Sequence record: OR062945.1
Direction: 5' to 3' (one strand)
Source: Escherichia phage 308Ecol101PP
Length of the DNA: 64,000 bases
This document shows positions 7,006-31,628 of this stretch, one piece after another (the stretch's first letter is position 1; the number at the start of each line of letters is the position of its first letter). The notes below the pieces were generated by a model. That model saw only the letters and a list, made by a program, of their open reading frames with translations. It made no database searches and had not been told where the DNA came from. The position numbers and the translations under genes were made by a program.

Positions 7006-9717
7006 ATGAAAGAATTTTACTTAACGGTTGAACAGATTGGTGATTCAATTTTTGAACGTTACATCGATTCTAACGGCCGTGAACGTACTCGTGAAGTAGA
7101 ATATAAACCATCACTGTTTGCTCATTGTCCAGAAAGTCAGGCTACGAAATATTTCGATATCTACGGTAAGCCGTGTACTCGTAAGTTGTTCGCCAATATG
7201 CGTGATGCCTCCCAATGGATTAAACGCATGGAAGATATCGGACTTGAAGCACTTGGCATGGATGATTTCAAATTGGCGTATTTGTCTGACACTTATAACT
7301 ATGAAATCAAATACGACCATACAAAAATTCGTGTGGCTAACTTCGACATCGAAGTAACATCTCCGGACGGGTTCCCTGAGCCGTCACAAGCAAAACATCC
7401 GATTGATGCTATCACTCATTATGACTCAATTGATGACAGGTTTTATGTATTTGACCTTTTGAATTCTCCATATGGTAATGTAGAAGAATGGTCTATTGAA
7501 ATCGCTGCTAAGCTTCAAGAACAAGGCGGTGATGAAGTTCCATCTGAAATTATCGATAAAATCATTTATATGCCGTTCGATAACGAAAAAGAATTGTTGA
7601 TGGAATATCTCAACTTCTGGCAACAGAAAACTCCTGTCATTTTGACTGGATGGAACGTTGAGTCATTTGATATTCCATATGTGTATAACCGAATCAAGAA
7701 TATTTTTGGCGAATCTACTGCGAAACGTTTATCACCACATCGTAAAACTCGTGTTAAAGTTATCGAAAACATGTATGGTTCTCGTGAAATCATTACATTG
7801 TTCGGTATCTCTGTTCTTGATTACATTGACCTTTACAAAAAATTCTCTTTTACCAATCAACCATCATATTCTCTGGATTACATTTCAGAATTTGAATTGA
7901 ACGTTGGTAAACTGAAATATGACGGCCCTATTTCTAAGCTTCGTGAAAGCAATCACCAACGATATATTTCTTATAACATTATCGACGTGTATCGTGTATT
8001 GCAAATTGATGCTAAACGTCAGTTCATCAACTTGAGTTTGGACATGGGTTATTATGCTAAGATACAGATTCAATCTGTGTTTAGCCCAATTAAAACATGG
8101 GATGCTATTATTTTTAATAGCCTTAAAGAGCAGAACAAGGTGATTCCACAAGGTCGTTCTCACCCGGTTCAACCTTATCCCGGCGCTTTTGTTAAGGAAC
8201 CTATTCCAAATCGATACAAATATGTAATGAGTTTCGACCTTACATCTCTGTATCCAAGTATTATTCGCCAAGTGAATATTAGCCCAGAAACAATAGCAGG
8301 AACGTTTAAAGTAGCTCCACTACATGATTATATTAACGCAATCGCTGAACGTCCTTCTGATGTGTACAGTTGTTCTCCTAACGGCATGATGTATTATAAA
8401 GACCGTGACGGTGTTGTTCCAACTGAAATCACTAAAGTCTTTAATCAACGTAAAGAACATAAAGGTTACATGCTTGCAGCTCAACGTAATGGCGAAATAA
8501 TTAAAGAGGCATTGCATAATCCTAATCTTTCTGTTGACGAACCATTAGATGTTGATTATCGTTTCGACTTCAGTGATGAGATTAAAGAAAAGATTAAAAA
8601 GTTGTCTGCTAAATCTCTTAATGAAATGTTGTTTAGAGCTCAACGTACTGAAGTTGCAGGTATGACTGCCCAAATTAACCGTAAATTGCTTATCAACTCA
8701 CTTTATGGTGCACTTGGCAACGTTTGGTTCCGTTATTATGATTTGCGTAATGCTACTGCAATCACAACATTCGGGCAAATGGCTTTACAGTGGATTGAAC
8801 GTAAAGTTAATGAATATCTGAATGAAGTTTGTGGCACAGAAGGTGAAGCTTTCGTTCTTTATGGTGATACAGACTCTATTTACGTATCTGCTGATAAAAT
8901 TATCGATAAGGTTGGTGAATCTAAATTCCGTGATACCAACCATTGGGTAGACTTCTTAGATAAGTTTGCACGTGAACGTATGGAACCAGCTATTGATAGA
9001 GGTTTCCGTGAAATGTGTGAATACATGAACAATAAACAACACTTAATGTTCATGGACCGAGAAGCTATCGCTGGGCCTCCACTCGGTTCTAAAGGTATTG
9101 GTGGATTCTGGACTGGTAAGAAACGTTATGCATTAAACGTGTGGGATATGGAAGGAACCAGATACGCTGAGCCTAAACTCAAAATCATGGGTCTAGAGAC
9201 TCAGAAATCTTCGACTCCTAAAGCAGTACAGAAAGCTCTTAAAGAATGTATTCGTCGTATGCTTCAAGAAGGTGAAGAATCATTACAAGAATATTTTAAA
9301 GAGTTTGAAAAAGAATTCCGTCAATTGAATTATATTAGCATCGCGTCGGTATCTTCTGCGAATAACATTGCTAAATATGATGTAGGTGGATTCCCTGGTC
9401 CTAAATGCCCGTTCCATATTCGTGGAATTCTGACGTATAACCGGGCTATCAAAGGTAATATCGATGCACCGCAAGTTGTAGAAGGTGAAAAAGTATATGT
9501 TCTGCCTTTACGTGAAGGAAACCCATTCGGTGATAAATGTATCGCATGGCCTTCTGGTACTGAAATCACAGATTTAATTAAAGACGATGTACTTCATTGG
9601 ATGGACTACACTGTTCTCCTTGAGAAGACATTTATTAAACCACTTGAAGGATTCACATCAGCAGCGAAACTCGATTACGAGAAGAAAGCATCTCTGTTCG
9701 ATATGTTCGATTTTTGA
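7006..9717 (+). CDS. 43: gp43 DNA polymerase (family B) with 3-prime to 5-prime exonuclease
   Basis: 903 aa; exo motifs FDIEV, YNIIDV; pol motifs SLYPSII, YGDTDS, KxxxNSxYG; sequence matches RB69 gp43 as I recall it. Confidence 0.98.
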   Translation: MKEFYLTVEQIGDSIFERYIDSNGRERTREVEYKPSLFAHCPESQATKYFDIYGKPCTRKLFANMRDASQWIKRMEDIGLEALGMDDFKLAYLSDTYNYEIKYDHTKIRVANFDIEVTSPDGFPEPSQAKHPIDAITHYDSIDDRFYVFDLLNSPYGNVEEWSIEIAAKLQEQGGDEVPSEIIDKIIYMPFDNEKELLMEYLNFWQQKTPVILTGWNVESFDIPYVYNRIKNIFGESTAKRLSPHRKTRVKVIENMYGSREIITLFGISVLDYIDLYKKFSFTNQPSYSLDYISEFELNVGKLKYDGPISKLRESNHQRYISYNIIDVYRVLQIDAKRQFINLSLDMGYYAKIQIQSVFSPIKTWDAIIFNSLKEQNKVIPQGRSHPVQPYPGAFVKEPIPNRYKYVMSFDLTSLYPSIIRQVNISPETIAGTFKVAPLHDYINAIAERPSDVYSCSPNGMMYYKDRDGVVPTEITKVFNQRKEHKGYMLAAQRNGEIIKEALHNPNLSVDEPLDVDYRFDFSDEIKEKIKKLSAKSLNEMLFRAQRTEVAGMTAQINRKLLINSLYGALGNVWFRYYDLRNATAITTFGQMALQWIERKVNEYLNEVCGTEGEAFVLYGDTDSIYVSADKIIDKVGESKFRDTNHWVDFLDKFARERMEPAIDRGFREMCEYMNNKQHLMFMDREAIAGPPLGSKGIGGFWTGKKRYALNVWDMEGTRYAEPKLKIMGLETQKSSTPKAVQKALKECIRRMLQEGEESLQEYFKEFEKEFRQLNYISIASVSSANNIAKYDVGGFPGPKCPFHIRGILTYNRAIKGNIDAPQVVEGEKVYVLPLREGNPFGDKCIAWPSGTEITDLIKDDVLHWMDYTVLLEKTFIKPLEGFTSAAKLDYEKKASLFDMFDF

Positions 9718-9757
9718 TATAATGACATGGACGGTAAACTAATTAAATGAGAGAAAT

Positions 9758-10393
9758 ATGAAAACTACTCCTATTACTATCGCTATTGACGCAATCATAA
9801 AACAAGCTTCTTCTTTGGCCGCTATGGCCAAAGTAATTAGTCAAAACCCTGCTCGTTATAATGCTATTCTAGAAACTCTTCGACGCCCAGGACTTAGTAA
9901 TTATGAAAGCCGAGTAATTATTACAGGTGTTGGTAAGAATGCTAATATTGCAACTAAAGCTTCTGAGACATTTGCTTCACTTGGTATCCCGAGTATGTAC
10001 TTGAACACTGGGCATTATTCTCACGGTGATGCAGGATTCATTGCGCCTAATGATGTGTTGATTCATATTAGTCGTTCTGGTAAAACTGAAGAAATGATAG
10101 GCGTGGCTAAGCATCTTAAAATGATTCGTCCGAACGTCAAACAGATTCTGTTGCATTGTAACCCGGACATTCCACAAGAATACGAAGCTCTTTTTGATTA
10201 TACGTTCTGTACAGGCATCGCAGTAGAGGTTGATGAGAATTCTCTGGCTCCGACCATGTCCACTACATTGTTGTTAGCGCTTATCGATACGTTTGCTATC
10301 AACCTTTCGTCTGAACGTGGATTTACCTCTAATGACTTCCTTAAGTTCCACCCTGGTGGTGCACTAGGTGCCATGTTACGAGGCGAACAATGA
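9758..10393 (+). CDS. SIS-domain sugar-phosphate isomerase, KdsD/GutQ-type (arabinose-5-phosphate isomerase-like), no CBS domains
   Basis: 211 aa; motifs TGVGKNANIATKASETFASLG, HGDAG, SRSGKTEE typical of KdsD-type SIS domains; not a T4 gene. Confidence 0.7.
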   Translation: MKTTPITIAIDAIIKQASSLAAMAKVISQNPARYNAILETLRRPGLSNYESRVIITGVGKNANIATKASETFASLGIPSMYLNTGHYSHGDAGFIAPNDVLIHISRSGKTEEMIGVAKHLKMIRPNVKQILLHCNPDIPQEYEALFDYTFCTGIAVEVDENSLAPTMSTTLLLALIDTFAINLSSERGFTSNDFLKFHPGGALGAMLRGEQ

Positions 10394-10533
10394 AAGCAAT
10401 AACAATAGGACTTTTACTATTGATGCTTGTCATGACTATCTACTGGAGCTTAACGGCTCCAGTAATGATTCCGACTCTTATAATCGGATGGATTATGATT
10501 GGACTACAAGCAAAGTATGAATGCTTTAACTAG
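10390..10533 (+). CDS. small hydrophobic membrane peptide (47 aa)
   Basis: ATGA overlap with SIS gene stop; MKAITIGLLLLMLVMTIYWSLTAPVMIPTLIIGWIMIGLQ...; below ORF-track cutoff. Confidence 0.4.
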   Translation: MKAITIGLLLLMLVMTIYWSLTAPVMIPTLIIGWIMIGLQAKYECFN

Positions 10534-10574
10534 AATAGTGTACAATACTCCTACTTACCAATGAGGACCACAAC

Positions 10575-12260
10575 ATGAAAAAAGCTGTTATTCTTGGTGC
10601 TGGACTGGCAACTCGTTTGTATCCAATAACGCATCATATTCCTAAGGTGCTTGTTAACTATAAACAAGACACTATTCTGAGCAATTTGTATACAATTTAT
10701 TCTGACCTTGGCGCAGATGAAATTATTGTAGTAGTTCATTCAAAATTTGCTGAAACTGTTCGAGCTTATTGTGAGCAAGAAGGGTTCAATGTGACTATTC
10801 GTACAGTTGATGAAGCGTATGGTTCTGCTTATGCTCTTGCTAAATTGCACAAAGATTTAGACGGCCATAATGTAATTGTTAACTGGTGTGATATTATTCC
10901 TGATTTTGGTTCGTGGTCTTGGAATGTTAACGCAATCTATGTTAAGGGTGACGAATGTCGATATAATTTCGACGGTGAAAATATCACTAATGTAGGTTCA
11001 ACAGGTGGTAATGTTGTAGGAATTTATCAGTTCAAAGACTGGGAATTCTATATGGGTTCTACTGATGAGGAAATTCATGAATACTGCAAAGGACGTGATT
11101 TCGTAGAATTCCTTTACGGCAGCGCATTCAATAAATCAGAGCTTATGAATCTAATTGATTTAGGTGATATGCCTAAACTTGAAAAAGCTCATGAAGTTCG
11201 TGAACTTAATCGTAGTTTTAATGCAGTTGAAATTGGTGAAGAAACTGTAACTAAATTCGCATTAACCGAACAGGGCCGAGCTCTTCAGAAAGATGAGATT
11301 TCATGGTATCTTAAAGTGAAATCAGATTCAGTTCCTCAGTTAGTTTCTGTTAATGAAAATAACTTTGAAATGGAACGCATTAAAGGTAAGCCGGCATTTG
11401 AATATATTAAATCCAAATCAAGTCTTGCTCGTCCACAAATTGTTGATGCAATTTTAGATGCACTGAAATTCAGCACAGACACTTATTTTGTAAGTCCTGA
11501 AACTGTTCGTCGTGATTTCACTAAAGAATTCTATACTAAAGTTATTGATCGTTGTGAAAGTATTCAACCATTGATTGATTCATTTGGTAAAATCACACAT
11601 GTGAACTACACTAAGATTGGGCGTCTGAAGCCAATGTTGAAACAAGCTTTAGAACACCTTATTCGTTATCATAACCGTTCTCAGGGACAGTACTCTGTTA
11701 TTCATGGTGACCCGAACTTCAGTAATACTATGATTACTGATAATGGTGAAGTCAAGTTTATCGACCCTCGTGGATATTTTGGTGAAACCAAGATTTATGG
11801 GCCAAAATTGTATGATGAAGCTAAAGTGCTTTACGCTGTTTCAGGTTATGATGAATTCAACGCTAATCCGACTTGGGGACAGTTTACTATTGATGAAACA
11901 ACTTGTAATGTGACTATTAACATCAATCCGTTAGTTTACAAATATGGAAAGATGAGTTCGTTTAACGAGTATCATCATTTGGCAGTGGCAATTATCTGGA
12001 TTGCATTAGGTGGTTATTTCAAGAATAATCCACTTAAAGCGGTAGCCGCATATTATAAAGGTATGGAACTTCTGACTAAGCAATTACGTAATATGGGCCG
12101 TGTACTTCAGGACGGCACTATTAGTTATGATGTAGCAGAACCTGTAACGGCTACTCTGATTACAAAAAATCCTGGTAAATGGGTACTAACTGATAAAGAA
12201 ACTGGTGTTTCTTATCGTCCAATCGGTGGCGATATCACTCATCAATGGGAACGAATCTAA
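10575..12260 (+). CDS. bifunctional protein: N-terminal sugar-1-phosphate nucleotidyltransferase (RmlA/GalU-like) fused to C-terminal APH/choline-kinase-like sugar kinase
   Basis: 561 aa; N-terminal GAGLATRLYPIT (RmlA signature G-x-G-T-R-L-x-P-I-T) ; C-terminal HGDPNFSNTMI...IDPRGYFG (Brenner motif plus DxxG of kinase-like phosphotransferases). Confidence 0.7.
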   Translation: MKKAVILGAGLATRLYPITHHIPKVLVNYKQDTILSNLYTIYSDLGADEIIVVVHSKFAETVRAYCEQEGFNVTIRTVDEAYGSAYALAKLHKDLDGHNVIVNWCDIIPDFGSWSWNVNAIYVKGDECRYNFDGENITNVGSTGGNVVGIYQFKDWEFYMGSTDEEIHEYCKGRDFVEFLYGSAFNKSELMNLIDLGDMPKLEKAHEVRELNRSFNAVEIGEETVTKFALTEQGRALQKDEISWYLKVKSDSVPQLVSVNENNFEMERIKGKPAFEYIKSKSSLARPQIVDAILDALKFSTDTYFVSPETVRRDFTKEFYTKVIDRCESIQPLIDSFGKITHVNYTKIGRLKPMLKQALEHLIRYHNRSQGQYSVIHGDPNFSNTMITDNGEVKFIDPRGYFGETKIYGPKLYDEAKVLYAVSGYDEFNANPTWGQFTIDETTCNVTININPLVYKYGKMSSFNEYHHLAVAIIWIALGGYFKNNPLKAVAAYYKGMELLTKQLRNMGRVLQDGTISYDVAEPVTATLITKNPGKWVLTDKETGVSYRPIGGDITHQWERI

Positions 12261-12646
12261 TGCACCGTGTAAAAAACATGCTTAATCTTTGTTTTGATGT
12301 CGATGATTGTATAACAGAGTGGAATAACAATCGTGATTACGTGAACTTCAAACCAGACGTCGAAATGGTGTCTGCCATTAATGCCCTGTATGATGCAGGG
12401 CATACCATAACGCTTTACACTGCTCGCGGTATGAAGTCAGTAGGTCCTGGTCGTATAGCAATTGACATTCTCCCAAGTCTGATTCAGAACTTGGCAAACA
12501 TTGGATTGAAGTACCATAATTTGCTAACACATAAACCAGTATATGATTGGATTATCGACGACAAAGCTATGCGTCCTGACGAATTCAAAGCTCTTATGAA
12601 TAAAGGCGAATTCGAAACATTTAAATCATATAAACCGAATCTATAA
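12260..12646 (+). CDS. small cap-less HAD-superfamily phosphatase-like protein
   Basis: 128 aa from ATG 12260 (TAATG overlap; ORF track starts at 12245); motif I FDVDD, motif II LYTAR, Lys (HKP), motif IV WIIDDK. Confidence 0.55.
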   Translation: MHRVKNMLNLCFDVDDCITEWNNNRDYVNFKPDVEMVSAINALYDAGHTITLYTARGMKSVGPGRIAIDILPSLIQNLANIGLKYHNLLTHKPVYDWIIDDKAMRPDEFKALMNKGEFETFKSYKPNL

Positions 12647-12692
12647 TAATTTAAGTAAGACCTGCAAAAACCATCGCATCAATTAACGTGGG

Positions 12693-13868
12693 ATGCAAAA
12701 AAAAAAAATGAATACTTTTAAAATCGGAACGAATTTTGATTTAGCTCTTCTTGATAAAATCGTAGAGCTCAATAAAACTTATCCTAATAGCTTGATAAAC
12801 GAAGTATACGGCTCTACAAGAGAAATGGCTTTTGTAGCAGCCAGACCTGATTTTAGGCTTCCTGACGTTGACAAAAAGATGTTAGAAGATTACGTTAAAC
12901 GTTGTAACGAATTAGGTATTTGCTTTAACTATACACTCAACACGATAAATCCTGGTTCAAAAAGAGAACTAGTTGAGTGGAAGAAGAAAGCTATTCAGGA
13001 TTATGTTCAGTATCTTTGGTCAATAGGCGTATGGCGTATTACTATCGCTAACCCTGTTGTTATGGAAATTGTTCGTGAAGTCAATAAAGACATTGAGATT
13101 GAAGTTTCAACAATTCTACATGTCGATGCTGTAACTCAAATCAAATACTTGCATGACCAATATAATATCAAAAAGGTCTGCTGTGGAATTCATAAGAACC
13201 GTTCAGTTTCTTTCCTGAAACGTGCAGCAGAGTTTTGTAATAAGAACAATATAATATTTGAAGTTCTTGTAAATGAGTTCTGTTCTAATGCTGGTAAAGG
13301 GTACACAACACATTGTAGCTATCGTGACTCTTGCTATATTTTCCATAGCACCGATGTTACAGTAGATGATGCCAAATCCTTAAATGGATATCCAATGCAA
13401 CACTGTATTAAAGCTCGTGATACAGATCCATTTAACTGGTTGAGAACTCGTTTTGTTCGTCCTCAAGATTTGAAACTTTATAATGATATTGGTATCACTC
13501 AATTTAAAGTTTCAGGACGTACAGGTAGCACCGACTACATTTTAAAAGTTCTTGAAGCTTACGCTTCTGAAAAGTTTGAAGGTAATTTGTTGGAATTGTG
13601 GAAGCCTTTAGAGACCATTTTCACTCTTGAAAATGAGACTGAGTTTTCACATACGGTAAATATTGAAACCTCTTTGTTAGACGGCTTTTTAGAAAAAAGG
13701 TGGTTCAAACATCCAGATTTCGATTGTGCTAATGAAATCTGCGGGACGACGTGTACATATTGTGAAAGATATTATAAACGTCAGTTATCTAAAAATGGGT
13801 TATCAGAAAACTCTATATCTATTATTGATATAACTAACTCTGATGACGCTTTGAGGTACCCAGAATGA
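12693..13868 (+). CDS. U32-family (peptidase U32 / UbiU-UbiV / RlhA-like) putative Fe-S protein
   Basis: 391 aa; U32-like blocks (ICFNYTLNT; EVLVNEFCSNAGKGYTTHCSY; FKVSGRTGS resembling the K-I-E-G-R motif); C-terminal CxxxCxxC (CGTTCTYC); alternative start ATG 12708 after an A12 run. Confidence 0.55.
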   Translation: MQKKKMNTFKIGTNFDLALLDKIVELNKTYPNSLINEVYGSTREMAFVAARPDFRLPDVDKKMLEDYVKRCNELGICFNYTLNTINPGSKRELVEWKKKAIQDYVQYLWSIGVWRITIANPVVMEIVREVNKDIEIEVSTILHVDAVTQIKYLHDQYNIKKVCCGIHKNRSVSFLKRAAEFCNKNNIIFEVLVNEFCSNAGKGYTTHCSYRDSCYIFHSTDVTVDDAKSLNGYPMQHCIKARDTDPFNWLRTRFVRPQDLKLYNDIGITQFKVSGRTGSTDYILKVLEAYASEKFEGNLLELWKPLETIFTLENETEFSHTVNIETSLLDGFLEKRWFKHPDFDCANEICGTTCTYCERYYKRQLSKNGLSENSISIIDITNSDDALRYPE

Positions 13869-14026
13869 TTTCTAGAAAAACTTTTAACCACCAACTTAAC
13901 GAAGAGATTTTGACTATTAAAATTAACAGCAACGAACAAATTCTTAAAAAGGCCCTTATGGGCCTGTTTGAAACTAAAGCGGCTAAAGTGATTAAAGAAA
14001 CCTGTTCAACTAGAATACTACGCTGA
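13865..14026 (+). CDS. small hypothetical protein (53 aa)
   Basis: ATGA overlap with preceding stop; below ORF-track cutoff. Confidence 0.3.
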   Translation: MISRKTFNHQLNEEILTIKINSNEQILKKALMGLFETKAAKVIKETCSTRILR

Positions 14027-14105
14027 TGCATTTCTTCATAGTGTTCTTGGAAATATCGATGCTGAAGCTTTACGTTATATCAACATCGCTAAGAAATTCA
14101 AATAA

Positions 14106-14128
14106 GCTTTATGAATTGAGTATATAAT
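14106..14128 (+). promoter_or_regulatory. putative MotA-dependent middle promoter upstream of gene 42 homologue
   Basis: GCTTTA (MotA-box-like) 11 nt upstream of TATAAT. Confidence 0.35.
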
Positions 14129-14146
14129 AACTGTATTGAGGTAAAC

Positions 14147-14863
14147 ATGGGAAAACATAACACAATGAAATATATTAAAGCCGCAGATTTTCAATCCGCA
14201 TTTAAAGCTGTCAATCGTGAAATTTTAGAAAATCCACAGTTCGTTACTGATTCTCGTATTGGACGTTGTAATGAAATTGGGTCTATGACAGTAGTTGTTG
14301 ATACCCCTTCATCATTCAAAATGACCGACCCACGTATTAATCGCATCTCTTATGAATATGCTGAAGATTTCTGGAAATTTATGATTTCTGGTGGTACTGA
14401 TGCAAAAGAAGCATTTAAGGCATATCCTAACGTTGCTAAATTTATTTCTAAACCTAAATCAGACGCTTTGCCTGCAAACTTCAACACTTTCTATGGTCCA
14501 CGAATTGCGGCCCAGTTACCAGCTCTTCTCAAAGAACTTAAAGAGAAACCTAATTCACGAAGAGTTGTGTTTCAAATTCTTGAAAGTTCAGATCAGGCTT
14601 TGCTTGATTCGGATGAAACGCTTGAATATCCATGTACTGACTCAGTGACTTATTATATTCGTGATGGTAAGCTTTATACCCACTGTCATATGCGTTCTCA
14701 GAACTGTGCTGTTGTTATGCAGTTGGATTTTTATCTCCAAGGAAAATTACTTCATTATATCGCTAACGAATGTGGTGTAGAAGTTGGTGATTATACTCAT
14801 ACCATGGTAAGTGCCCATGTGTTTGAACGTGATTTTGATTATGTTAAAGGATTCCTTGACTAA
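14147..14863 (+). CDS. 42: thymidylate-synthase-fold deoxynucleotide hydroxymethylase, gp42 (dCMP hydroxymethylase) homologue
   Basis: 238 aa; NSRRVVFQ, EYPCTDSVTYYIRDGKLYTHCHMRSQN, VSAHVFERDF align with T4 gp42/TS active-site blocks as recalled; T4 gene order. Confidence 0.7.
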   Translation: MGKHNTMKYIKAADFQSAFKAVNREILENPQFVTDSRIGRCNEIGSMTVVVDTPSSFKMTDPRINRISYEYAEDFWKFMISGGTDAKEAFKAYPNVAKFISKPKSDALPANFNTFYGPRIAAQLPALLKELKEKPNSRRVVFQILESSDQALLDSDETLEYPCTDSVTYYIRDGKLYTHCHMRSQNCAVVMQLDFYLQGKLLHYIANECGVEVGDYTHTMVSAHVFERDFDYVKGFLD

Positions 14864-15762
14864 TGGCTATTTTCCGCGTACCTATCTTGAGTATGCGGTC
14901 TTATGAAACTGGACAGTATGCTATCCTTAAGGATGGCAACTTCCAACTTCATTTGCACCGTGCTAATCCGGGTGATGTGATTACATATCCACGTAATGCA
15001 TCTGATATTAAAGAATGCGAACGTCTTTTTCCAGAATTTAAGTTTGTTCCATTATGGTATAAAGATAACGCGTATAACACTCGTAAATATTTCTGGTCTG
15101 AAAATGAATTTGTGGTTGATTCATTAATTGCTTATTATGATTGTGATTTTCTAATCACAGATATCACTGGATATGACGGCGCTTTTGATGTGGAATTCAA
15201 TTTCAATATCACTGCAGACCCTAATAAACCACGTTTTTATATTGACGAATTCTTAAAAACCGACATGTTGTCGGTTAATCGTTCACTTCAAACTACTGTG
15301 TTGAATGAACGTCAAAAAGAAGTGCTGGTTAACGCAGGTGCAGATGGTAATAAGATTATCGTAACCCAGAAAGTTATACGTCCTTCCATCATGCAGCGTC
15401 TTGTAGGTGATTTGGCTCCTATTCATCTAGATGGTATTTTTCATCCATTTCGAATTAGTGACCCGTGCTATCGTTTTGAACAAGTGGTTGAATGTGCAAT
15501 TCAATTAGGTCAACCGCTTTATATAACTGATCCAAATAATAGTTTCGACAGAAATAAGTATCCTGAAGAAGCGCTGATTCGAATTTTTAATCCAACTAAA
15601 ACTGAGTACTATCAAATTCTTAAAGGACGTCCGAAGATTCAATATTTCGAAAATCCTGAAGAAGTATTCCATCCAGGTCTTGGTGAGTTCATCTACTTTA
15701 ATGCTTTAATTTCTTCGCCGTATAATATACCTAAATACGAAGATGTCGTAATCGAGGAATAA
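14863..15762 (+). CDS. hypothetical protein in the position of T4 beta-glucosyltransferase (299 aa), no recognisable similarity to beta-gt
   Basis: TAATG coupled start after gene 42 homologue; no motif recognised. Confidence 0.5.
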   Translation: MAIFRVPILSMRSYETGQYAILKDGNFQLHLHRANPGDVITYPRNASDIKECERLFPEFKFVPLWYKDNAYNTRKYFWSENEFVVDSLIAYYDCDFLITDITGYDGAFDVEFNFNITADPNKPRFYIDEFLKTDMLSVNRSLQTTVLNERQKEVLVNAGADGNKIIVTQKVIRPSIMQRLVGDLAPIHLDGIFHPFRISDPCYRFEQVVECAIQLGQPLYITDPNNSFDRNKYPEEALIRIFNPTKTEYYQILKGRPKIQYFENPEEVFHPGLGEFIYFNALISSPYNIPKYEDVVIEE

Positions 15763-15763
15763 A

Positions 15764-16312
15764 ATGGTTAAAATTATTTTAGTAGATGGCCCGGATAATG
15801 CCGGTAAAACAACTTTCATTAATGACATAATGGAAATTAGTGAAAGATATGTAAAGATTGATTTCCCTAAACGAACAGTTGATGGACGTTTCGATGTTAA
15901 GTCTCGAAATGAAGTTGGCTGTTTCGAAACGATGTTGAATTATTTAGACCCTACTAAGATTTATCTGTTAGACCGTGGATATATTAGTAACTGGGTTTAT
16001 GGACGTATTCGACAAGATGCGGACTCGGTTCTTGACGTTTATGAACAGGATTATGTTCGTCTTTGCCAAAACCATGATGTGTTCACAATTATTTTAACAC
16101 GTAACGAAATGACTGAAAGTTTTGAAGACGACCTTATTACTTTGTCTTCATTCGGTTTTAATACAGTCATTTCATATTTTGAAGAGTTTGCAATTCATAA
16201 CAAAATCCAAACGTATCAATTACTTAATCATGACGGTGCTAACAAAGTTATAGGATTTAATGCAAGCGAACGTAATTATTTGATTACAGAAATTATCAAA
16301 TGGGCTCGTTAA
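15764..16312 (+). CDS. P-loop NTPase, putative nucleoside/nucleotide kinase-like protein
   Basis: 182 aa; Walker A LVDGPDNAGKTT at N-terminus, size typical of dNMP/dNK kinases. Confidence 0.5.
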   Translation: MVKIILVDGPDNAGKTTFINDIMEISERYVKIDFPKRTVDGRFDVKSRNEVGCFETMLNYLDPTKIYLLDRGYISNWVYGRIRQDADSVLDVYEQDYVRLCQNHDVFTIILTRNEMTESFEDDLITLSSFGFNTVISYFEEFAIHNKIQTYQLLNHDGANKVIGFNASERNYLITEIIKWAR

Positions 16313-16330
16313 GAGCCTGTTTAAAGTTTT

Positions 16331-16358
16331 AAATGCTGTATAACCCTTAGTATATAAT
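16331..16358 (+). promoter_or_regulatory. putative middle promoter upstream of uvsX
   Basis: AAATGCTGTA (MotA-box-like) 12 nt upstream of TATAAT. Confidence 0.35.
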
Positions 16359-16411
16359 CGTCTTATCTTTTAAACATGAGTAAAATATAATGATGCCTAT
16401 GGAAAAATACA

Positions 16412-17584
16412 ATGTCTGATTTAAAATCTCGTCTGATTAAAGCTTCTACTTCTAAAATGACTGCAGACTTGACTAAGTCTAAGCTGTTTAATAATCGTGA
16501 TGAAGTCCCTACTCGTATTCCGATGTTGAATATTGCATTAGGTGGTGCACTGAATGCCGGGTTGCAATCAGGCTTAACTATTTTTGCTGCTCCTTCTAAA
16601 CACTTTAAAACGTTGTTTGGGCTGACCATGGTTGCAGCATATATGAAGAAATATAAAGATGCAATTTGTTTGTTCTATGATTCAGAATTTGGTGCTTCAG
16701 AATCTTATTTTCGTTCAATGGGTGTTGATTTAGACCGTGTAGTTCATACTCCTATTCAATCTGTCGAACAACTTAAAGTTGATATGACTAATCAGCTTGA
16801 CGCGATTGAACGTGGTGATAAAGTTATTATCTTTATCGATTCAATCGGTAATACTGCATCTAAGAAAGAAACCGAAGATGCGTTGAACGAGAAAGTCGTA
16901 GGTGATATGTCTCGTGCTAAGGCACTTAAATCTCTTTTCCGTATTGTGACCCCGTATCTGACTATTAAAGATATTCCGTGTGTTGCAATTAACCATACAG
17001 CAATGGAAATCGGCGGATTGTATCCTAAAGAGATTATGGGCGGTGGTACAGGTATTCTTTATTCTGCCAACACGGTATTTTTTATCTCTAAACGTCAGGT
17101 TAAAGAAGGCACAGAATTGACCGGTTATGACTTCACGTTGAAAGCAGAAAAATCTCGAACCGTTAAAGAAAAATCTACTTTCCCAATCACGGTTAATTTT
17201 GATGGTGGTATCGACCCATTCAGTGGCTTGTTAGAAATGGCAACTGAAATTGGTTTTGTAGTTAAGCCTAAAGCCGGGTGGTATGCTCGAGAATTCCTTG
17301 ACGAAGAAACAGGCGAAATGATTCGTGAAGAAAAATCATGGCGTGCTAAAGCTACTGATTGTGTAGAATTCTGGGGACCGTTGTTTAAACACAAACCTTT
17401 CCGAGACGCAATTGAAACTAAATATAAACTAGGTGCTATCTCTTCTATTAAAGAAGTTGATGACGCTGTTAATGACCTTATTAATTGCAAAGCAACAACT
17501 AAAGTTCCGGTTAAAACTTCTGATGCACCGTCTGCAGCAGATATAGAAAACGACCTTGACGAAATGGAAGATTTCGATGAATAA
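16412..17584 (+). CDS. uvsX: UvsX recombinase (RecA/Rad51 family)
   Basis: 390 aa; Walker A-like FAAPSKHFKT, Walker B-like VIIFIDSIGN, acidic C-terminal tail; T4 gene order. Confidence 0.95.
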   Translation: MSDLKSRLIKASTSKMTADLTKSKLFNNRDEVPTRIPMLNIALGGALNAGLQSGLTIFAAPSKHFKTLFGLTMVAAYMKKYKDAICLFYDSEFGASESYFRSMGVDLDRVVHTPIQSVEQLKVDMTNQLDAIERGDKVIIFIDSIGNTASKKETEDALNEKVVGDMSRAKALKSLFRIVTPYLTIKDIPCVAINHTAMEIGGLYPKEIMGGGTGILYSANTVFFISKRQVKEGTELTGYDFTLKAEKSRTVKEKSTFPITVNFDGGIDPFSGLLEMATEIGFVVKPKAGWYAREFLDEETGEMIREEKSWRAKATDCVEFWGPLFKHKPFRDAIETKYKLGAISSIKEVDDAVNDLINCKATTKVPVKTSDAPSAADIENDLDEMEDFDE

Positions 17585-21098: not shown

Positions 21099-21347
21099 AT
21101 GGAATTATTCGTGGCTAGTTCAGTAGCAGTTTTAATCGCAGGTATTGGTTCAATCATCATTTACATGTTGCCTTGGGTAATCGCACTTATTCGTGGCACA
21201 AAAAGCACAACAGCAATCTTCTTTGTATCTTTACTCTTTAACTGGACGATGATTGGTTGGATTGGAACTTTAATTTGGTCTATTGTTGCCGAAAAGAAAT
21301 CTGCTCAGCAGCCTCAACAAGTAATTATTATTCGCGAAAAAGAATAA
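21099..21347 (+). CDS. small integral membrane protein (82 aa, 2-3 predicted TM helices)
   Basis: Hydrophobic stretches VAVLIAGIGSIIIYMLPWVIALI and FFVSLLFNWTMIGWIGTLIWSIVA; SD AGAGGAAA. Confidence 0.55.
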   Translation: MELFVASSVAVLIAGIGSIIIYMLPWVIALIRGTKSTTAIFFVSLLFNWTMIGWIGTLIWSIVAEKKSAQQPQQVIIIREKE

Positions 21348-24298: not shown

Positions 24299-24386
24299 AA
24301 TATCTCCTTAGTTACCTATTATTTATTACGCTTTATAAAATTAATGTTAGAATTAACTCTCTTATACTGAATTGAAAGGAAAAATA

Positions 24387-24908
24387 ATGGCACACTTTAA
24401 CGAATGTTCACAACTTATTTCTGGTGTTGATAAAGCAGAAGAAGCTTATTTTAATGCTCTGATTCACGAAGATAAAGACCCACTTCAGGTAATGCTTGAT
24501 ATGCAGAAATCTTTACAGGTTCGTTTGGCAAATGACAAGCCTGAACATAACAAACATCCTGATGAATTGGCCACTGCAGGCGACGTTGTTGATTGGCTGC
24601 GTAATCAGAAAGATTATATTGATGATGAATTCCGTGAACTGCTGACTTCACTTGGTGGTATGAGCAATGGTGAAAAAGCCGCCAGCAGTGTATGGAAGCC
24701 GTGGAAAGCACAACATGCTGAATATCGTAATCGTCGTATCGATGAACTGTCTCCTGAAGACCAGCTTGAAATTAAATTTGAGATGATTGATATTCTGCAC
24801 TTCGTTCTGAACATGTTCCAAGGTCTGGGTCTTTCTGCTGAAGAAATCTTTAAACTGTATTATCTGAAGAATGCTGAAAACTTTGCTCGTCAAGACCGAG
24901 GTTATTAA
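24387..24908 (+). CDS. 56: gp56 dCTPase/dCTP pyrophosphatase (MazG-like)
   Basis: 173 aa from ATG 24387 (ORF track starts earlier at 24372); MAHFNEC..., DEFRELLTSLG, IDILHFVLNMF, C-terminal KNAENFARQDRGY match T4 gp56 as recalled. Confidence 0.85.
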   Translation: MAHFNECSQLISGVDKAEEAYFNALIHEDKDPLQVMLDMQKSLQVRLANDKPEHNKHPDELATAGDVVDWLRNQKDYIDDEFRELLTSLGGMSNGEKAASSVWKPWKAQHAEYRNRRIDELSPEDQLEIKFEMIDILHFVLNMFQGLGLSAEEIFKLYYLKNAENFARQDRGY

Positions 24909-25081
24909 TGGCTCGTTTAAATAAACGTCAGCTTAAGAAAGCTCATAAGAAACGTATTGACCAACTATTTAAAAATGATAACAGTGAGCTTATTTGTAAG
25001 CTCCTGTCTAATCAGCTTCAGCATGTTAGTCAATTATCAGACCATCTACATATGGTTGATTGGGTTGCAAATGAAACTTGA
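24908..25081 (+). CDS. small hypothetical protein (57 aa)
   Basis: TAATG-coupled to gene 56 stop; below ORF-track cutoff. Confidence 0.3.
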   Translation: MARLNKRQLKKAHKKRIDQLFKNDNSELICKLLSNQLQHVSQLSDHLHMVDWVANET

Positions 25082-25295
25082 TTTTTATGCATGGCAAAAA
25101 GCCGGGAGACCGGCTAATAAAGCATTCGGCTCTGATGGATATAATACTAGACTCCACTGGAAATTTAATACTCCAGATGATTATTCTCCGGTAATAATTA
25201 ACGGTGATGTTGTTATATTAGCTAAATTCGGATATTTTATTGTCCCGAAGAAATTCATTATAAATACACCTGTAATTAAACAACAAAGGAGTTAA
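25071..25295 (+). CDS. small hypothetical protein (74 aa)
   Basis: ATG 25071; ORF track alternative begins at 24957; weak SD. Confidence 0.3.
   Translation: MKLDFYAWQKAGRPANKAFGSDGYNTRLHWKFNTPDDYSPVIINGDVVILAKFGYFIVPKKFIINTPVIKQQRS
25259..25266 (+). promoter_or_regulatory. late promoter TATAAATA upstream of soc
   Basis: Exact TATAAATA 32 nt upstream of the soc ATG. Confidence 0.6.
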
Positions 25296-25297
25296 TT

Positions 25298-25534
25298 ATG
25301 GGTGGTTATGTAAACATCAAAACCTTTACGCATCCTGCTGGTGAAGGTAAAGAAGTTAAAGGTATGGAAGTTTCTGTGCCGTTTGAGATTTATTCAAACG
25401 AACATCGGATTGCAGATTCTCATTACCAAATCTTTCCATCAGAAAAGGCAGCTTATTCTACTGTAGTTTCTGATGCAGCTGACTGGAAAACTAAGAACGC
25501 TGCAATGTTTACCCCTACACCAGTAAGTGGTTAA
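25298..25534 (+). CDS. soc: Soc small outer capsid protein
   Basis: 78 aa; YVNIKTF..., AHYQ/SHYQ, FPSEKAAYSTV match T4 Soc as recalled; late promoter upstream, terminator downstream. Confidence 0.8.
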   Translation: MGGYVNIKTFTHPAGEGKEVKGMEVSVPFEIYSNEHRIADSHYQIFPSEKAAYSTVVSDAADWKTKNAAMFTPTPVSG

Positions 25535-25543
25535 ATAATTTAA

Positions 25544-25570
25544 GGAATCCTTCGGGGTTCCTTTTTTTTT
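25544..25570 (+). terminator. intrinsic terminator, UUCG hairpin plus T9
   Basis: GGAATCC-TTCG-GGGTTCC followed by TTTTTTTTT. Confidence 0.8.
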
Positions 25571-25579
25571 GTTTCTACA

Positions 25580-25609
25580 GTTTACAAACACTAAAAACTG
25601 TGTTAAGAT
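25580..25609 (+). promoter_or_regulatory. putative early promoter
   Basis: GTTTAC with TAAGAT about 18 nt downstream. Confidence 0.4.
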
Positions 25610-25637
25610 ATTCTTACTTACTCAAGAGGAGAATAAT

Positions 25638-25865
25638 ATGTTAAATCGTTGGATTAAACCTAATAACACATTAGGTGCTTTGATTGCTCAAGAAGTTTCG
25701 TTGAAATACGGTCTTGGATATTACGATGATGTAGTCGTACACTCATTCATGATGGATGGTGAAGACGTCAAATTTAATGCCGAAATCCGTTGGGATGATG
25801 GTGGTGTTCGTTTTGTTCGAGGAACAATTAATGCTTACGATACTGAAGAAGTTGTTTGCTGTTAA
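25638..25865 (+). CDS. hypothetical protein (75 aa)
   Basis: ATG 25638 after CAAGAGGAGAA; ORF track begins at 25569. Confidence 0.45.
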   Translation: MLNRWIKPNNTLGALIAQEVSLKYGLGYYDDVVVHSFMMDGEDVKFNAEIRWDDGGVRFVRGTINAYDTEEVVCC

Positions 25866-25879
25866 ACCAGGCGAAGGTA

Positions 25880-26067
25880 TGATGCCTATTCCTGATACAC
25901 ACGAAAAAAGTTGGGAATACATTGGTGACGGCATGATGGAAGAAGTTATTCGTCCTAAGTCTGCTTCAAACTCTTCAAGTTATAATCATTCATACGTATC
26001 GTCTTGGCCCGGTGATTCTGGGTCAAGTTATTCTGATTGTGGTTCAAGCTCAGGGAGCTGCGAATGA
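25880..26067 (+). CDS. hypothetical protein (62 aa), Ser/Gly-rich C-terminus
   Basis: ATG 25880 after GAAGG; ORF track begins at 25756. Confidence 0.3.
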
Positions 26068-26243
26068 ACAAGATAGTTAAATGGTTTAAAAGCTGGGACG
26101 ATGGTGTCGGTCCAGAAGATTGGCTGGATGTTCTTGAAGAGAATATGGCTAAAGAATTCCAGAAACATGAAGAAAAGCTCGTCGAAGATGAAGGCGAACG
26201 TATTGTAAAACTTTATATGGGTGAACCATCGAGGAAATTATAA
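26064..26243 (+). CDS. hypothetical protein (59 aa)
   Basis: ATGA-coupled start; ORF track begins at 26037. Confidence 0.35.
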   Translation: MNKIVKWFKSWDDGVGPEDWLDVLEENMAKEFQKHEEKLVEDEGERIVKLYMGEPSRKL

Positions 26244-26707
26244 TGGATGCTATGCTATTTAAAATGTATTTGCTTGAAGCCAAGTCATTTAAACATATAC
26301 CAGTGGAAGATAAGACTCCACTAGAAATAGCTATTCTAATTAACAAAAGTCTAAATAATCCGCAATATATCGTAGAAGAATTCTGCAAATTGCAGATTCC
26401 TAAAGGTTACAAAATTCGTGTAGAGCGAGTTGGAGCTATTACTCGTTCTAAAAATTCTCCGTTTAGTCTTGAAGAAGGCATAAAGGACTTAGGTTATGAA
26501 TCTACGGAAAATGCCGTTTATGTGAATCCTGAAAAGCGTTTAGACCTGTTTGAAAAGCGAGACCATAAGTATTTTGCCAAAAAATACTTTATTACATCAT
26601 TAGCAGATTTAATCCATTTGCAACGAGCTATTTGGAAATTTTTTAAGACAAAAGGTGTAGCACTAGAAACATTCTCTGAACCGGCTAGTTTTTATCTAGG
26701 TGAATAA
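26243..26707 (+). CDS. hypothetical protein (154 aa)
   Basis: TAATG-coupled start. Confidence 0.5.
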   Translation: MDAMLFKMYLLEAKSFKHIPVEDKTPLEIAILINKSLNNPQYIVEEFCKLQIPKGYKIRVERVGAITRSKNSPFSLEEGIKDLGYESTENAVYVNPEKRLDLFEKRDHKYFAKKYFITSLADLIHLQRAIWKFFKTKGVALETFSEPASFYLGE

Positions 26708-26708
26708 T

Positions 26709-26888
26709 ATGGACCTTATGAGTATGTTTGACGAGCCTGAAGTTGAGGCTCCTAAAGTGCATCGTAGTGAACTTATTGATGAACTAGATAGTATTATACA
26801 ACGACACGGCTTTAGTTTACCTGTTGAAGCCCTGAAAGACCTTGCATCTTATTATGACGACCCTCCACCATGGAGTCCTTGGAAATGA
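26709..26888 (+). CDS. hypothetical protein (59 aa)
   Basis: ATG 26709 after TAGGTGA; ORF track begins at GTG 26700. Confidence 0.4.
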   Translation: MDLMSMFDEPEVEAPKVHRSELIDELDSIIQRHGFSLPVEALKDLASYYDDPPPWSPWK

Positions 26889-27049
26889 AAGAGAAATTGA
26901 AAGAGAAATTCTTACTAGAAATCAAGGAAAAAGACTTTGAGACATGGTATCGAATGGTGAAAGGGCTGACATTGCTTTTTAAAGCATCGTTATTCATGTT
27001 AGAACAACCTGGTCCTGATGGGCCTTTAGTAGGAAAGCTTAAAAAGTAG
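26885..27049 (+). CDS. small hypothetical protein (54 aa)
   Basis: ATGA-coupled; contains direct 12-nt repeat GAAAGAGAAATT x2 at start. Confidence 0.3.
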   Translation: MKEKLKEKFLLEIKEKDFETWYRMVKGLTLLFKASLFMLEQPGPDGPLVGKLKK

Positions 27050-27077
27050 TTTACATTCCCTCCTCTCGTGTTATGAT
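27049..27077 (+). promoter_or_regulatory. early promoter
   Basis: GTTTAC, 17-nt spacer, TATGAT, AGGCTTATC. Confidence 0.5.
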
Positions 27078-27104
27078 AGGCTTATCTTTAAATGGAGGTC
27101 TATC

Positions 27105-27686
27105 ATGACATGTCAATCTGAACTTCAAGAACGTGAATACCTAACAAATCTGATTGATAGCAAATTCACCCGCCAAGAACAAAACATTCTCTGGGCTTGC
27201 ACCGATTCTAAGGAAGACCCAGATTTCCACTATGAATTAGACCATCTTGTTCGTAAGCATATGACTTCTACAGTACCAGTAGAACTCTACCGTGGTGTAA
27301 CTCCAGAAGAAGTAGAACGTCTTTCCCTTCTTTCTGTGGGATGCCATTGGTCTCCTGGACGAGTAACATCGTTCACAACTGATTTCAGTACAGCTCGTCA
27401 ATTCTCCGGGAGATGGGAATATCAGACGTACACTATTCTTAGTCTCAGGAATGCTCCGTTCATTTTTGATTACTACCAAAACATGGTTAACATTGTACTC
27501 GCCGGAAAGAACCCTAAGCATGTTATGGAAGAAACTCGTATCGATGTCCTAGATATGATTGAATCTGAGCAAGAGTACATGGTCTCAGGTATCTCTAGAT
27601 TTGAGATTGTGGAAATTGAAGACTTAGAATATGACCCTTTATCTCGGTTATACAAAATCATTCATTTGAAAATGTTGAATTTTTAG
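27105..27686 (+). CDS. ADP-ribosyltransferase, ModA/ModB-like (R-S-E class), paralogue 1
   Basis: 193 aa; LYRG (Arg), SFT (S-x-S), EYMV (Glu) ; paralogous to next gene; T4 modA/modB position upstream of dda. Confidence 0.6.
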   Translation: MTCQSELQEREYLTNLIDSKFTRQEQNILWACTDSKEDPDFHYELDHLVRKHMTSTVPVELYRGVTPEEVERLSLLSVGCHWSPGRVTSFTTDFSTARQFSGRWEYQTYTILSLRNAPFIFDYYQNMVNIVLAGKNPKHVMEETRIDVLDMIESEQEYMVSGISRFEIVEIEDLEYDPLSRLYKIIHLKMLNF

Positions 27687-27715
27687 TGTACAAACTCTTC
27701 CGATGATGATACTAT
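27686..27715 (+). promoter_or_regulatory. early promoter
   Basis: GTGTAC, 18-nt spacer, TACTAT. Confidence 0.45.
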
Positions 27716-27743
27716 ACCTTTATCAACCATAGGAGAAACCTAA

Positions 27744-28352: not shown

Positions 28353-28426
28353 CTGAATTGGAATAACCGGATGGAACTCAGAACCATTATAACACATAAA
28401 AAATTAAAGCATTTTATGAAAAAAGA

Positions 28427-28455
28427 GTGTACACTACCTGAGGGCATGATATTAT
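28427..28455 (+). promoter_or_regulatory. early promoter
   Basis: GTGTAC, 17-nt spacer, TATTAT, AAGCTTATC. Confidence 0.5.
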
Positions 28456-28505
28456 AAGCTTATCAGCTAAACGACCTTAACGTCCGTAAGACAGAGGAAA
28501 ATATT

Positions 28506-29252: not shown

Positions 29253-29254
29253 TT

Positions 29255-30876: not shown

Positions 30877-30885
30877 GAGAAAATT

Positions 30886-31563: not shown

Positions 31564-31568
31564 AATCA

Positions 31569-31598
31569 GTTTACAACCAAGGACGGTTGGAGTATAAT
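31569..31598 (+). promoter_or_regulatory. early promoter
   Basis: GTTTAC, 18-nt spacer, TATAAT. Confidence 0.6.
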
Positions 31599-31628
31599 CT
31601 TTCTATCTTAACCAAACGGGAAACAATT

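Follow-up and report, generated by a model that had tools for sequence, protein, structure and literature searches.

A U32-family protein in the arabinosyl-5-hydroxycytosine module of an RB69-like phage: a candidate oxygen-independent pyrimidine hydroxylase

Introduction

Escherichia phage 308Ecol101PP (sequence record OR062945.1) carries five tightly packed, co-oriented genes on the + strand, between its DNA polymerase gene and a thymidylate-synthase homologue, at positions 9758-13868 of the 64 000-nucleotide stretch that was analysed (hereafter, the window). This cassette raises a double question: which DNA modification does it serve, and what is a U32-family iron-sulphur (Fe-S) protein doing among genes for a sugar donor? 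An initial annotation had located all five open reading frames (ORFs) at these positions, co-oriented and closely packed, and had assigned them to protein families; the positions hold, and the families are borne out by Pfam, NCBIfam and PDB matches. We find that the region is almost certainly the arabinosyl-5-hydroxycytosine DNA-modification module of RB69-like phages, as far as sequence can tell, both in its sugar pathway and in the identity of its base. The best explanation overall, to which we give a probability of about 0.6, combines this known module with a U32 protein that would act as an O2-independent C5 hydroxylase.

Much of the first half of the answer has been published. Thomas et al. 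(2018; PMC6024577) detected arabinose in RB69 DNA, which was first reported as arabinosyl-hydroxymethylcytosine, merged ORF053c and ORF052c into one gene of 561 residues, and proposed the module between the polymerase gene and uvsX as the maker of uridine diphosphate (UDP)-arabinose. Lee et al. (2026; PMC13326640), using mass spectrometry (MS) and nuclear magnetic resonance (NMR), found the base to be mono- or di-arabinosylated 5-hydroxycytosine with an ether link, and RB69 gp48 to make 5-hydroxy-deoxycytidine monophosphate (5-hydroxy-dCMP) with bound flavin (flavin mononucleotide, FMN) and oxygen coming from 18O2; a further paper of 2026 calls the earlier hydroxymethyl assignment erroneous. 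According to the summary given in PMC13326640, the UDP-arabinose module was reconstituted biochemically in 2025-2026, and He et al. (2026) assigned its steps in phage HY126: the isomerase yields arabinose-5-phosphate, the kinase domain arabinose-1,5-bisphosphate, the phosphatase of the HAD family arabinose-1-phosphate and the nucleotidyltransferase domain UDP-arabinofuranose. As far as these sources report, arabinosylated 5-hydroxycytosine DNA has been shown for RB69, NP and HY126. The sugar-donor reading of the cassette adds nothing beyond these publications of 2018-2026, and it is the unexplained U32 gene that matters. The characterised cytosine hydroxylase needs O2, and the hosts live largely without O2 in the gut.

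Results and discussion

An arabinosylation module

By megablast, the cassette is 98-99% identical to that of RB69-like coliphages, and the window is that of an RB69-like phage. The same cassette occurs in 193 phage records (152 of them with at least 80% query coverage at 90-99% identity), so that its arrangement is not due to chance. Four of the five cassette genes are those of the known UDP-arabinofuranose pathway, and the sugar-donor reading is therefore not new. The functional module extends past the cassette through 14147-16312, and further modification genes lie elsewhere in the window; lengths are in amino acids (aa).

9758-10393, + strand: D-arabinose-5-phosphate isomerase, 211 aa, RB69 gp55 homologue (ribulose-5-phosphate to arabinose-5-phosphate)
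10575-12260, + strand: bifunctional arabinose-5-phosphate 1-kinase (C-terminal) and arabinose-1-phosphate uridylyltransferase (N-terminal), 561 aa, homologue of RB69 gp52:53 and HY126 AfhE
12245-12646, + strand: small HAD phosphatase, 133 aa, homologue of RB69 gp51 and HY126 AfhF (removes the 5-phosphate of arabinose-1,5-bisphosphate)
14147-14863, + strand: O2- and flavin-dependent 5-hydroxy-dCMP synthase, a thymidylate-synthase homologue of RB69 gp48 type (PF00303, 2.4e-15)
14863-15762, + strand: first DNA arabinosyltransferase, RB69 gp46:47 homologue (phrog_3891, 1.5e-155; no Pfam match)
15764-16312, + strand: thymidylate-kinase-like nucleotide kinase, RB69 gp45 homologue (phrog_761 thymidylate kinase, 4.6e-44)
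24372-24908, + strand: dCTP pyrophosphatase of gp56 type, matching in position the nucleoside triphosphate pyrophosphohydrolase annotated in collinear phage F2
36953-38053, + strand: second arabinosyltransferase, of GT-B type, RB69 gp3 homologue

The isomerase ORF matches the Pfam SIS family (1.7e-10), TIGR00393 KpsF/GutQ (2.2e-32) and the KdsD model (1.2e-30) and, in the PDB, the arabinose-5-phosphate isomerases 3etn (5.5e-25), 5uqi and 2xhz; the role of this SIS protein was assigned in PMC13326640. With its 211 aa it is an SIS domain alone, without the tandem CBS pair of KdsD and GutQ, and covers model positions 2-153 of 268 (TIGR00393) and 47-202 of 328 (KdsD). It does the same work as KdsD and GutQ without being a full-length member of their group, and resembles the short single-domain proteins 3etn and 5uqi. 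In a gene-order comparison, no SIS isomerase was detectable in the modules of VR5, Marfa, PWKp16 and Thanatos-2, which keep the kinase/nucleotidyltransferase and the HAD phosphatase; host KdsD or GutQ presumably supplies arabinose-5-phosphate to these phages. A similar pattern is seen for the chorismate mutase described below, which some U32-bearing phages lack.

In the 561-aa protein, PF00483 (8.5e-10) covers residues 3-99 and marks an N-terminal sugar-1-phosphate nucleotidyltransferase, while the C-terminal half is APH/choline-kinase-like, with weak Pfam APH/fructosamine-kinase matches at residues 350-410; the motifs GxGxRL and HGDxxxxN are present in the translation. Sugar-1-phosphate nucleotidylyltransferase models of NCBIfam, PDB 1jyk and, over the full length, phrog_4098 (4.6e-295) also match. 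Nucleotidyltransferase and kinase are borne by a single polypeptide of 561 aa, as in the corrected RB69 ORF53_52c. The HAD protein has the DVDD motif I, matches TIGR01689 (4.2e-13) and PDB 1xpj (5.1e-10), and is identical or near-identical to the crystallised AfhF-type protein (PDB 9iqw, 2.8e-87 over residues 5-133). A segB-like homing endonuclease stands between the HAD and U32 genes in Serratia phage LC53 (locus L015, 7015-7653) and Yersinia phage phiR1-RT (L019, 5364-6002); the window has none there.

The thymidylate-synthase homologue, which the initial annotation had taken for a gp42-type hydroxymethylase, is instead 100% identical to the hydroxylase of phage HY126 and matches PDB 9iqc, 9ir2 and 9iqu (1.7e-163). 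Its PC and RSQN...LD motifs display the signature of hydroxylase-type ThyA proteins (N177D, D169N, catalytic Cys retained), the D169N reading depending on an ungapped register at a point where MAFFT put a 2-residue gap. The first arabinosyltransferase and the nucleotide kinase (RB69 gp45) were assigned in PMC13326640 Table 1. The second arabinosyltransferase lies between the topoisomerase gene gp39 and rIIA, a position that agrees with the published description. This enzyme and the dCTP pyrophosphatase had both been announced by the initial annotation and were found. Such a pyrophosphatase gives dCMP and keeps dCTP from DNA.

From what was shown elsewhere for near-identical proteins, the SIS enzyme would convert ribulose-5-phosphate into D-arabinose-5-phosphate, the kinase half of the 561-aa protein would add a 1-phosphate, the HAD phosphatase would then take off the 5-phosphate to leave arabinose-1-phosphate, and the nucleotidyltransferase half would produce UDP-D-arabinofuranose. 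In parallel, the thymidylate-synthase homologue would hydroxylate dCMP at C5 with O2 and flavin. Once kinases had brought 5-hydroxy-dCMP to the triphosphate, the polymerase would incorporate it; on DNA, its 5-hydroxyl would then be arabinosylated by the two glycosyltransferases (14863-15762 and 36953-38053).

The initial annotation had rightly seen that the SIS, kinase/nucleotidyltransferase and HAD proteins turn ribulose-5-phosphate into a nucleoside diphosphate (NDP)-pentose for DNA glycosylation, in agreement with the pathway as PMC13326640 summarizes it. It had, however, run the HAD phosphatase before the kinase, through free arabinose to arabinose-1-phosphate, had passed the NDP-pentose to hydroxymethylcytosine made by a gp42-type hydroxymethylase, and had been aware of no donor pathway assigned to these genes. 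That scheme is now barely credible. The HAD-then-kinase order still appears in the function labels of PMC13326640 Table 1, and the first report on RB69 DNA did name arabinosyl-hydroxymethylcytosine (PMC6024577), but the text of PMC13326640, where it cites the HY126 biochemistry, puts the kinase first and the phosphatase second, with no free pentose. According to NMR, MS and 18O2 labelling, the base is 5-hydroxycytosine, bound by an ether link; the window enzyme is identical to the characterised hydroxylase, and the kinase-first order parallels, as a matter of general knowledge, the ADP-heptose route. As to the donor pathway, it was proposed by Thomas et al. in 2018, and its steps were assigned by He et al. 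and Lee et al. in 2026.

The U32-family protein

12693-13868, + strand: U32-family Fe-S protein, 391 aa, RB69 gp50 homologue (PF01136, 6.6e-11)

The last gene of the cassette belongs to the U32 family, with 42.4 bits for PF01136 against a cutoff of 22.4, and its AF2 model (mean predicted local distance difference test score, pLDDT, 92.3) has a U32 protein, 5d88, as its top Foldseek match in the PDB (E 1.1e-7, target TM 0.72). Characterised U32 proteins act in hydroxylation: RlhA is responsible for 5-hydroxycytidine (ho5C2501) in 23S rRNA and TrhP for 5-hydroxyuridine (ho5U34) in tRNA, while UbiU and UbiV serve the anaerobic hydroxylation of ubiquinone precursors with prephenate as oxygen donor. 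All characterised U32 hydroxylation factors need prephenate and no O2. RlhA cannot do without E161/C169/C176, nor TrhP without E162/C170/C177.

When the profile of the phage U32 family was aligned by hhalign to the four E. coli U32 proteins, RlhA was the best match (79.6%, 206 columns), ahead of TrhP (12.7%) and UbiU (5%). In this alignment, RlhA E161/C169/C176 stand opposite phage U32 E195/C208/C214, which are invariant in 121 family members (and in a 56-member set). C163, C197, C238 and a C-terminal CX4CX3CX2C motif (C345/C350/C354/C357) are invariant as well; as candidate ligands, these Cys would suffice in number for one or two [4Fe-4S] clusters. A sequence search of the PDB with the phage protein gave no match and, because single-sequence searches retrieve no canonical U32 protein, the subfamily assignment rests on profile alignment and motifs. 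Judged in this way, the phage U32 proteins are a separate subfamily, which comprises 466 clusters (50% identity, E<=1e-30) in a set of 1.84 billion representatives.

Chorismate mutase beside the U32 gene

Chorismate mutase makes prephenate, which E. coli obtains via PheA and TyrA. Such an enzyme (Pfam CM_2 approx. 1e-9, above cutoff) is encoded by a gene of 80 aa that fits exactly between the U32 gene and the thymidylate-synthase homologue of Klebsiella phages KLB31 and PWKp16. Searches by tblastn found this gene in 48 phage records, all T4-like and always at the same spot, and more divergent copies follow U32 in Proteus phage phiP4-3 and Shewanella phage Thanatos-2. The stop codon of U32 overlaps the start of the mutase gene in KLB31, PWKp16, LC53 and Thanatos-2; in the last of these, the two genes stand side by side elsewhere in the module, behind the nucleotide kinase. 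Across the gene-order comparison of relatives, a chorismate mutase without U32 was never seen. Residues R11, R28, K39, S84 and Q88 of the E. coli PheA mutase domain, which we take to be the active-site residues of that enzyme (EcCM), are kept and invariant in the phage mutases.

A scan of IMG/VR provided 41 U32 loci, of which 15 are T4-like and 26 are not (19 clusters at 90% identity). Among the T4-like loci, 13 out of 15 have a chorismate mutase after U32, and the thymidylate-synthase homologue is present in all 15.

U32 genes in unrelated phages

The non-T4 homologues are 44-55% identical to the U32 protein of the window. A ThyA-family ORF was found within 10 kb of U32 in none of the 19 clusters, with the window protein and E. 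coli ThyA as queries. A homologue of the first glycosyltransferase is nevertheless near U32 in 10 of them, often immediately upstream, and homologues of the SIS isomerase and the kinase/nucleotidyltransferase in seven. Thymidylate kinase is the commonest Pfam family among the 93 remaining neighbours, and other metagenomic U32 homologues adjoin dNK, NT5C and nucleoside deoxyribosyltransferase genes. As glycosyltransferase, kinase and nucleotide genes flank U32 where no ThyA is nearby, U32 accompanies enzymes that need a hydroxylated pyrimidine nucleotide.

The shikimate pathway begins with 3-deoxy-D-arabino-heptulosonate-7-phosphate (DAHP) synthase. A chorismate mutase, a fusion of DAHP synthase and chorismate mutase, or a DAHP synthase lies by U32 in 6/19 clusters, several of them on contigs of 190-294 kb. 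In uncultured phages, DAHP synthase genes, alone or with a chorismate mutase fused at the C-terminus, were observed beside U32 at L044 8411-9433, L046 7302-8357, L055 11085-12203, L034 9384-10130 and L006 9145-9891.

Several of these loci have features of their own. U32 directly abuts a dCMP deaminase in three lineages (L003 7447-9086, L010 7504-9083 and L063 4814-6402), and the substrate of some members may be dUMP instead of dCMP, with 5-hydroxyuracil as the product. One metagenomic homologue stands beside a DNA glycosyltransferase of the TET-associated type (TAGT) and a UDP-galactopyranose mutase. On phage contig L011 (6495-14179) the order is thymidylate-kinase-like gene, first-glycosyltransferase homologue, U32, TET-associated-type glycosyltransferase, dUTPase/DCD, a second TAGT-like gene and UDP-galactopyranose mutase, with no ThyA homologue present; this looks like a different glycosylated hydroxypyrimidine system, possibly with galactofuranose. 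At L004 (8001-14360), two U32 paralogues, 22% identical to each other, enclose NT5C, a nicotinamide mononucleotide (NMN) transporter, dNK, a tRNA-synt_2c (alanyl-tRNA-synthetase class) protein and a radical-SAM/SPASM protein. After the second U32 comes a nucleoside deoxyribosyltransferase, and a dockerin-containing glycoside hydrolase nearby hints at an anaerobic Firmicute as host.

Host distribution

Of the 377 phage records with the ThyA-type hydroxylase, 57 belong to Acinetobacter and 22 to Rhizobium phages. The 221 records with U32 come almost without exception from phages of Enterobacterales and Shewanella, hosts that are facultative anaerobes; the host genera are Escherichia, Klebsiella, Shigella, Serratia, Proteus, Yersinia, Enterobacter, Providencia, Edwardsiella, Morganella, Kosakonia and Shewanella; Acinetobacter is not in the ten commonest genera of these records, each further genus having at most three. 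In the one Acinetobacter phage locus that was inspected, U32 was not found. This host range fits an enzyme useful in facultative anaerobes.

A proposed role for U32

We propose that U32 is not a sugar-pathway enzyme. Family chemistry, the conservation of residues essential in its relatives and the repeated gene linkage make it somewhat probable that the protein hydroxylates a cytosine nucleotide or DNA. The wider proposal, for which the odds appear to us about even, is that it founds a subfamily of phage-borne pyrimidine C5 hydroxylases, independent of O2 and dependent on prephenate, that act on deoxynucleotides or DNA. They would be the anaerobic twin of the ThyA type in enteric T4-like phages and, in many others, including jumbo phages, the sole hydroxylase to supply DNA glycosylation. 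In the window, U32 would thereby offer a second route to the 5-hydroxyl, as an Fe-S, prephenate-dependent C5 hydroxylase of dCMP or DNA cytosine, and would allow DNA modification in an anaerobic enteric host, where the O2-dependent enzyme cannot work. The window lineage would use host prephenate, relatives would add a chorismate mutase of their own, and some non-T4 phages would boost prephenate by their own chorismate mutase or DAHP-synthase fusions.

Several points weigh against this proposal. The sequence similarity of phage U32 to any characterised subfamily is weak and shows no close kinship: phmmer gave no match between the phage protein and E. coli RlhA, TrhP, UbiU or UbiV, and NCBIfam returned UbiU only, at 5e-4 and 19 bits against a cutoff of 440. 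Direct in vitro hydroxylase activity has been shown for no U32 protein. The in vitro reconstitution of the HY126 pathway, as PMC13326640 summarizes it, apparently did not need U32, and Table 1 of the same paper lists RB69 gp50, without discussion, as 'sugar or heterocycle reductase'. The window has no chorismate mutase, and phage Marfa likewise has U32 without the mutase. The non-T4 contigs were covered over approximately 10 kb on each side of U32, so that a ThyA homologue may lie elsewhere on them. The correlation with host aerobiosis is confounded by phylogeny, and some 40 E. coli phage records (e.g. VR5) have the ThyA-type enzyme and no U32, which implies that U32 is dispensable, at least aerobically. 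In the literature searched, to which He et al. 2026 and Mahler et al. 2025 do not belong, we found no paper linking phage U32 with RlhA or TrhP, or chorismate mutase with arabinosyl modification.

Other functions for U32 have to be weighed, all of them less well supported by the gene contexts than C5 hydroxylation. The first is a redox function directed at the sugar or, once hydroxylation has taken place, at the modified base, such as arabinose tailoring or cofactor recycling. The published reductase label for gp50 (PMC13326640 Table 1) points this way, the conserved Fe-S-type Cys and the second, C-terminal four-Cys motif are suited to electron transfer, and the U32 gene adjoins sugar genes. 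The established route from ribulose-5-phosphate to UDP-arabinofuranose, as related in that paper, needs no reduction, however; moreover, a redox enzyme offers no rationale for the recurrent, often translationally coupled chorismate mutase or for the fusions of DAHP synthase and chorismate mutase, and U32 also occurs with dCMP deaminase where sugar genes are not nearby. We regard such a function as unlikely.

Slightly more doubtful still is the hydroxylation of RNA, in which U32 would form ho5C or ho5U in rRNA or tRNA, of the host or of the phage, with prephenate supplied by the chorismate mutase. The only characterised pyrimidine-hydroxylating U32 proteins do act on RNA, one of them, RlhA, is the best E. 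coli match, and T4-like phages are generally known to encode tRNAs. Yet in every T4-like genome examined U32 is embedded in the DNA-modification module, and unrelated phages have it together with DNA glycosyltransferase, thymidylate-kinase-like kinase, dCMP deaminase, dNK, NT5C or nucleoside deoxyribosyltransferase genes. RlhA (653 aa) and TrhP (453 aa) also have long C-terminal regions without a counterpart in phage U32, and no CmoA- or CmoB-type genes were found alongside the phage gene. Finally, a collagenase-like peptidase unrelated to DNA modification, as suggested by the 'peptidase', 'collagenase' and 'protease' annotations of many phage records and by the top PDB match being annotated as a U32 peptidase, is most improbable, since the family label is historical, the characterised RlhA, TrhP and UbiU/V act in hydroxylation, and the phage proteins combine invariant Fe-S-type Cys with a strict nucleotide-metabolism context.

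Layout of the locus and small ORFs

7006-9717: DNA polymerase, upstream of the cassette
10390-10533, + strand: hydrophobic peptide of 47 aa with two predicted membrane segments (phrog_3610, 4.5e-27)
13865-14026, + strand: small ORF of 53 aa (RB69 ORF049-like, phrog_8601), without a Pfam match, in the slot that chorismate mutase occupies in relatives
21099-21347: imm-like ORF of 82 aa, recognized from the window ORFs and from collinearity with annotated phage F2

Base composition is even over the cassette region, and three junctions (10390-10393, 12245-12260 and 13865-13868) show an overlap of stop and start codons. A scan of 9600-16500 for promoters and terminators gave matches no commoner than in shuffled sequence, and the overlapping codons are the sole indication of transcription units here.

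The 47-aa peptide is translationally coupled to the isomerase in the window, KLB31, LC53 and phiR1-RT. In VR5, an unannotated homologue (60% identity; L013 5707-5841) directly follows imm, at a distance from the pathway genes. On this ground, membership of the peptide in the pathway was judged unlikely; its function may instead concern the membrane or superinfection. The initial annotation had the cassette replacing imm, whereas an imm-like ORF is present elsewhere in the window.

The small ORF after U32 was considered as a chorismate mutase and set aside, belonging as it does to a different PHROG and having no Pfam match. A mutase remnant was likewise sought at 13865-14147 with a profile of four phage mutases in six frames, and nothing significant appeared. 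The ORF is intact (79 aa) in a 99%-identical IMG/VR phage (L020); a 1-nt A insertion near 13998 truncates the window copy to 53 aa, and the copy in phage F2 has a premature TAA. These two independent disruptions point to a gene that is dispensable and in decay, or else to a sequencing error in a homopolymer. Neither the 47-aa peptide nor this small ORF is probably part of the chemistry.

Relative to phage F2, which is otherwise collinear, the window has approximately 1.46 kb extra within about 25000-35100, the gene for the topoisomerase large subunit starting at 35093 in the window and at locus position 33635 in F2.

Implications

If U32 is indeed a prephenate-dependent hydroxylase, the upkeep of a protective DNA modification under anoxia would be explained. 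It would be the first case of a U32 enzyme acting on a small-molecule nucleotide, in a field that is still without an in vitro assay for any member, and 5-hydroxycytosine DNA (possibly 5-hydroxyuracil DNA also) would have a second, independent origin. Hundreds of uncultured phages would moreover be flagged as likely carriers of hydroxylated, glycosylated DNA, with a bearing on restriction evasion, on phage therapy and on the sequencing and engineering of such genomes.

Comparison with known systems

The closest systems are the Afh pathway of HY126 and those of RB69 (gp45-gp55 and gp3), DLP3 and Serratia phage LC53, which have the same genes in the same order as the window; the window proteins are 97-100% identical to the module proteins of HY126 and RB69. 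Unlike the window, Acinetobacter phages such as DLP3 and Minot have no U32 gene.

The glucosylation of hydroxymethylcytosine in T4 is alike in combining a dCTPase with a thymidylate-synthase-family enzyme that modifies dCMP at C5, incorporation by the polymerase and glycosylation after replication, and its modification genes hold the same genomic position, from gene 43 to uvsX. The two systems differ in the group added, CH2OH from methylene-tetrahydrofolate in T4 and OH from O2 and flavin in the window, and in the sugar, which is glucose from host UDP-glucose in T4 and D-arabinofuranose from a phage-made donor in the window module. Accordingly, the thymidylate-synthase homologue has the fold and the dCMP-selecting Asp in common with T4 gp42, but not the folate-dependent transfer of CH2OH, and the window glycosyltransferases are unrelated to T4 beta-gt.

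The ADP-heptose pathway (GmhA/HldE/GmhB) proceeds by isomerase, kinase, phosphatase and nucleotidyltransferase. It resembles the sugar pathway of the window in its SIS isomerase, its bifunctional kinase/nucleotidyltransferase and its HAD phosphatase, which takes the distal phosphate off a sugar bisphosphate; it differs in handling a heptose with a ribokinase-like kinase and ADP for lipopolysaccharide, where the window has a pentose, an APH-like kinase and UDP for DNA.

As for U32, the phage protein has in common with RlhA, TrhP and UbiU/V the U32 TIM-barrel domain, the motif of one Glu and two Cys, and further Fe-S-type Cys. It differs from RlhA (653 aa) and TrhP (453 aa) in lacking their RNA-binding extensions, in its own C-terminal CX4CX3CX2C module and in its proposed substrate, which would be a deoxynucleotide or DNA instead of RNA. 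The link with prephenate is genetic in the characterised proteins and genomic in the phages, through the adjacent chorismate mutase of relatives.

The proposed pairing of the ThyA type with U32 recalls TrhO and TrhP, UbiI-H-F and UbiU-V, and NrdAB and NrdDG of T4-like phages, where an O2-dependent enzyme is encoded together with an O2-independent one; RB69-type phages do carry nrdD. What would set the phage pair apart, as read from gene content and distribution, is its aerobic partner, a flavoenzyme with the thymidylate-synthase fold, which makes the combination a new one.

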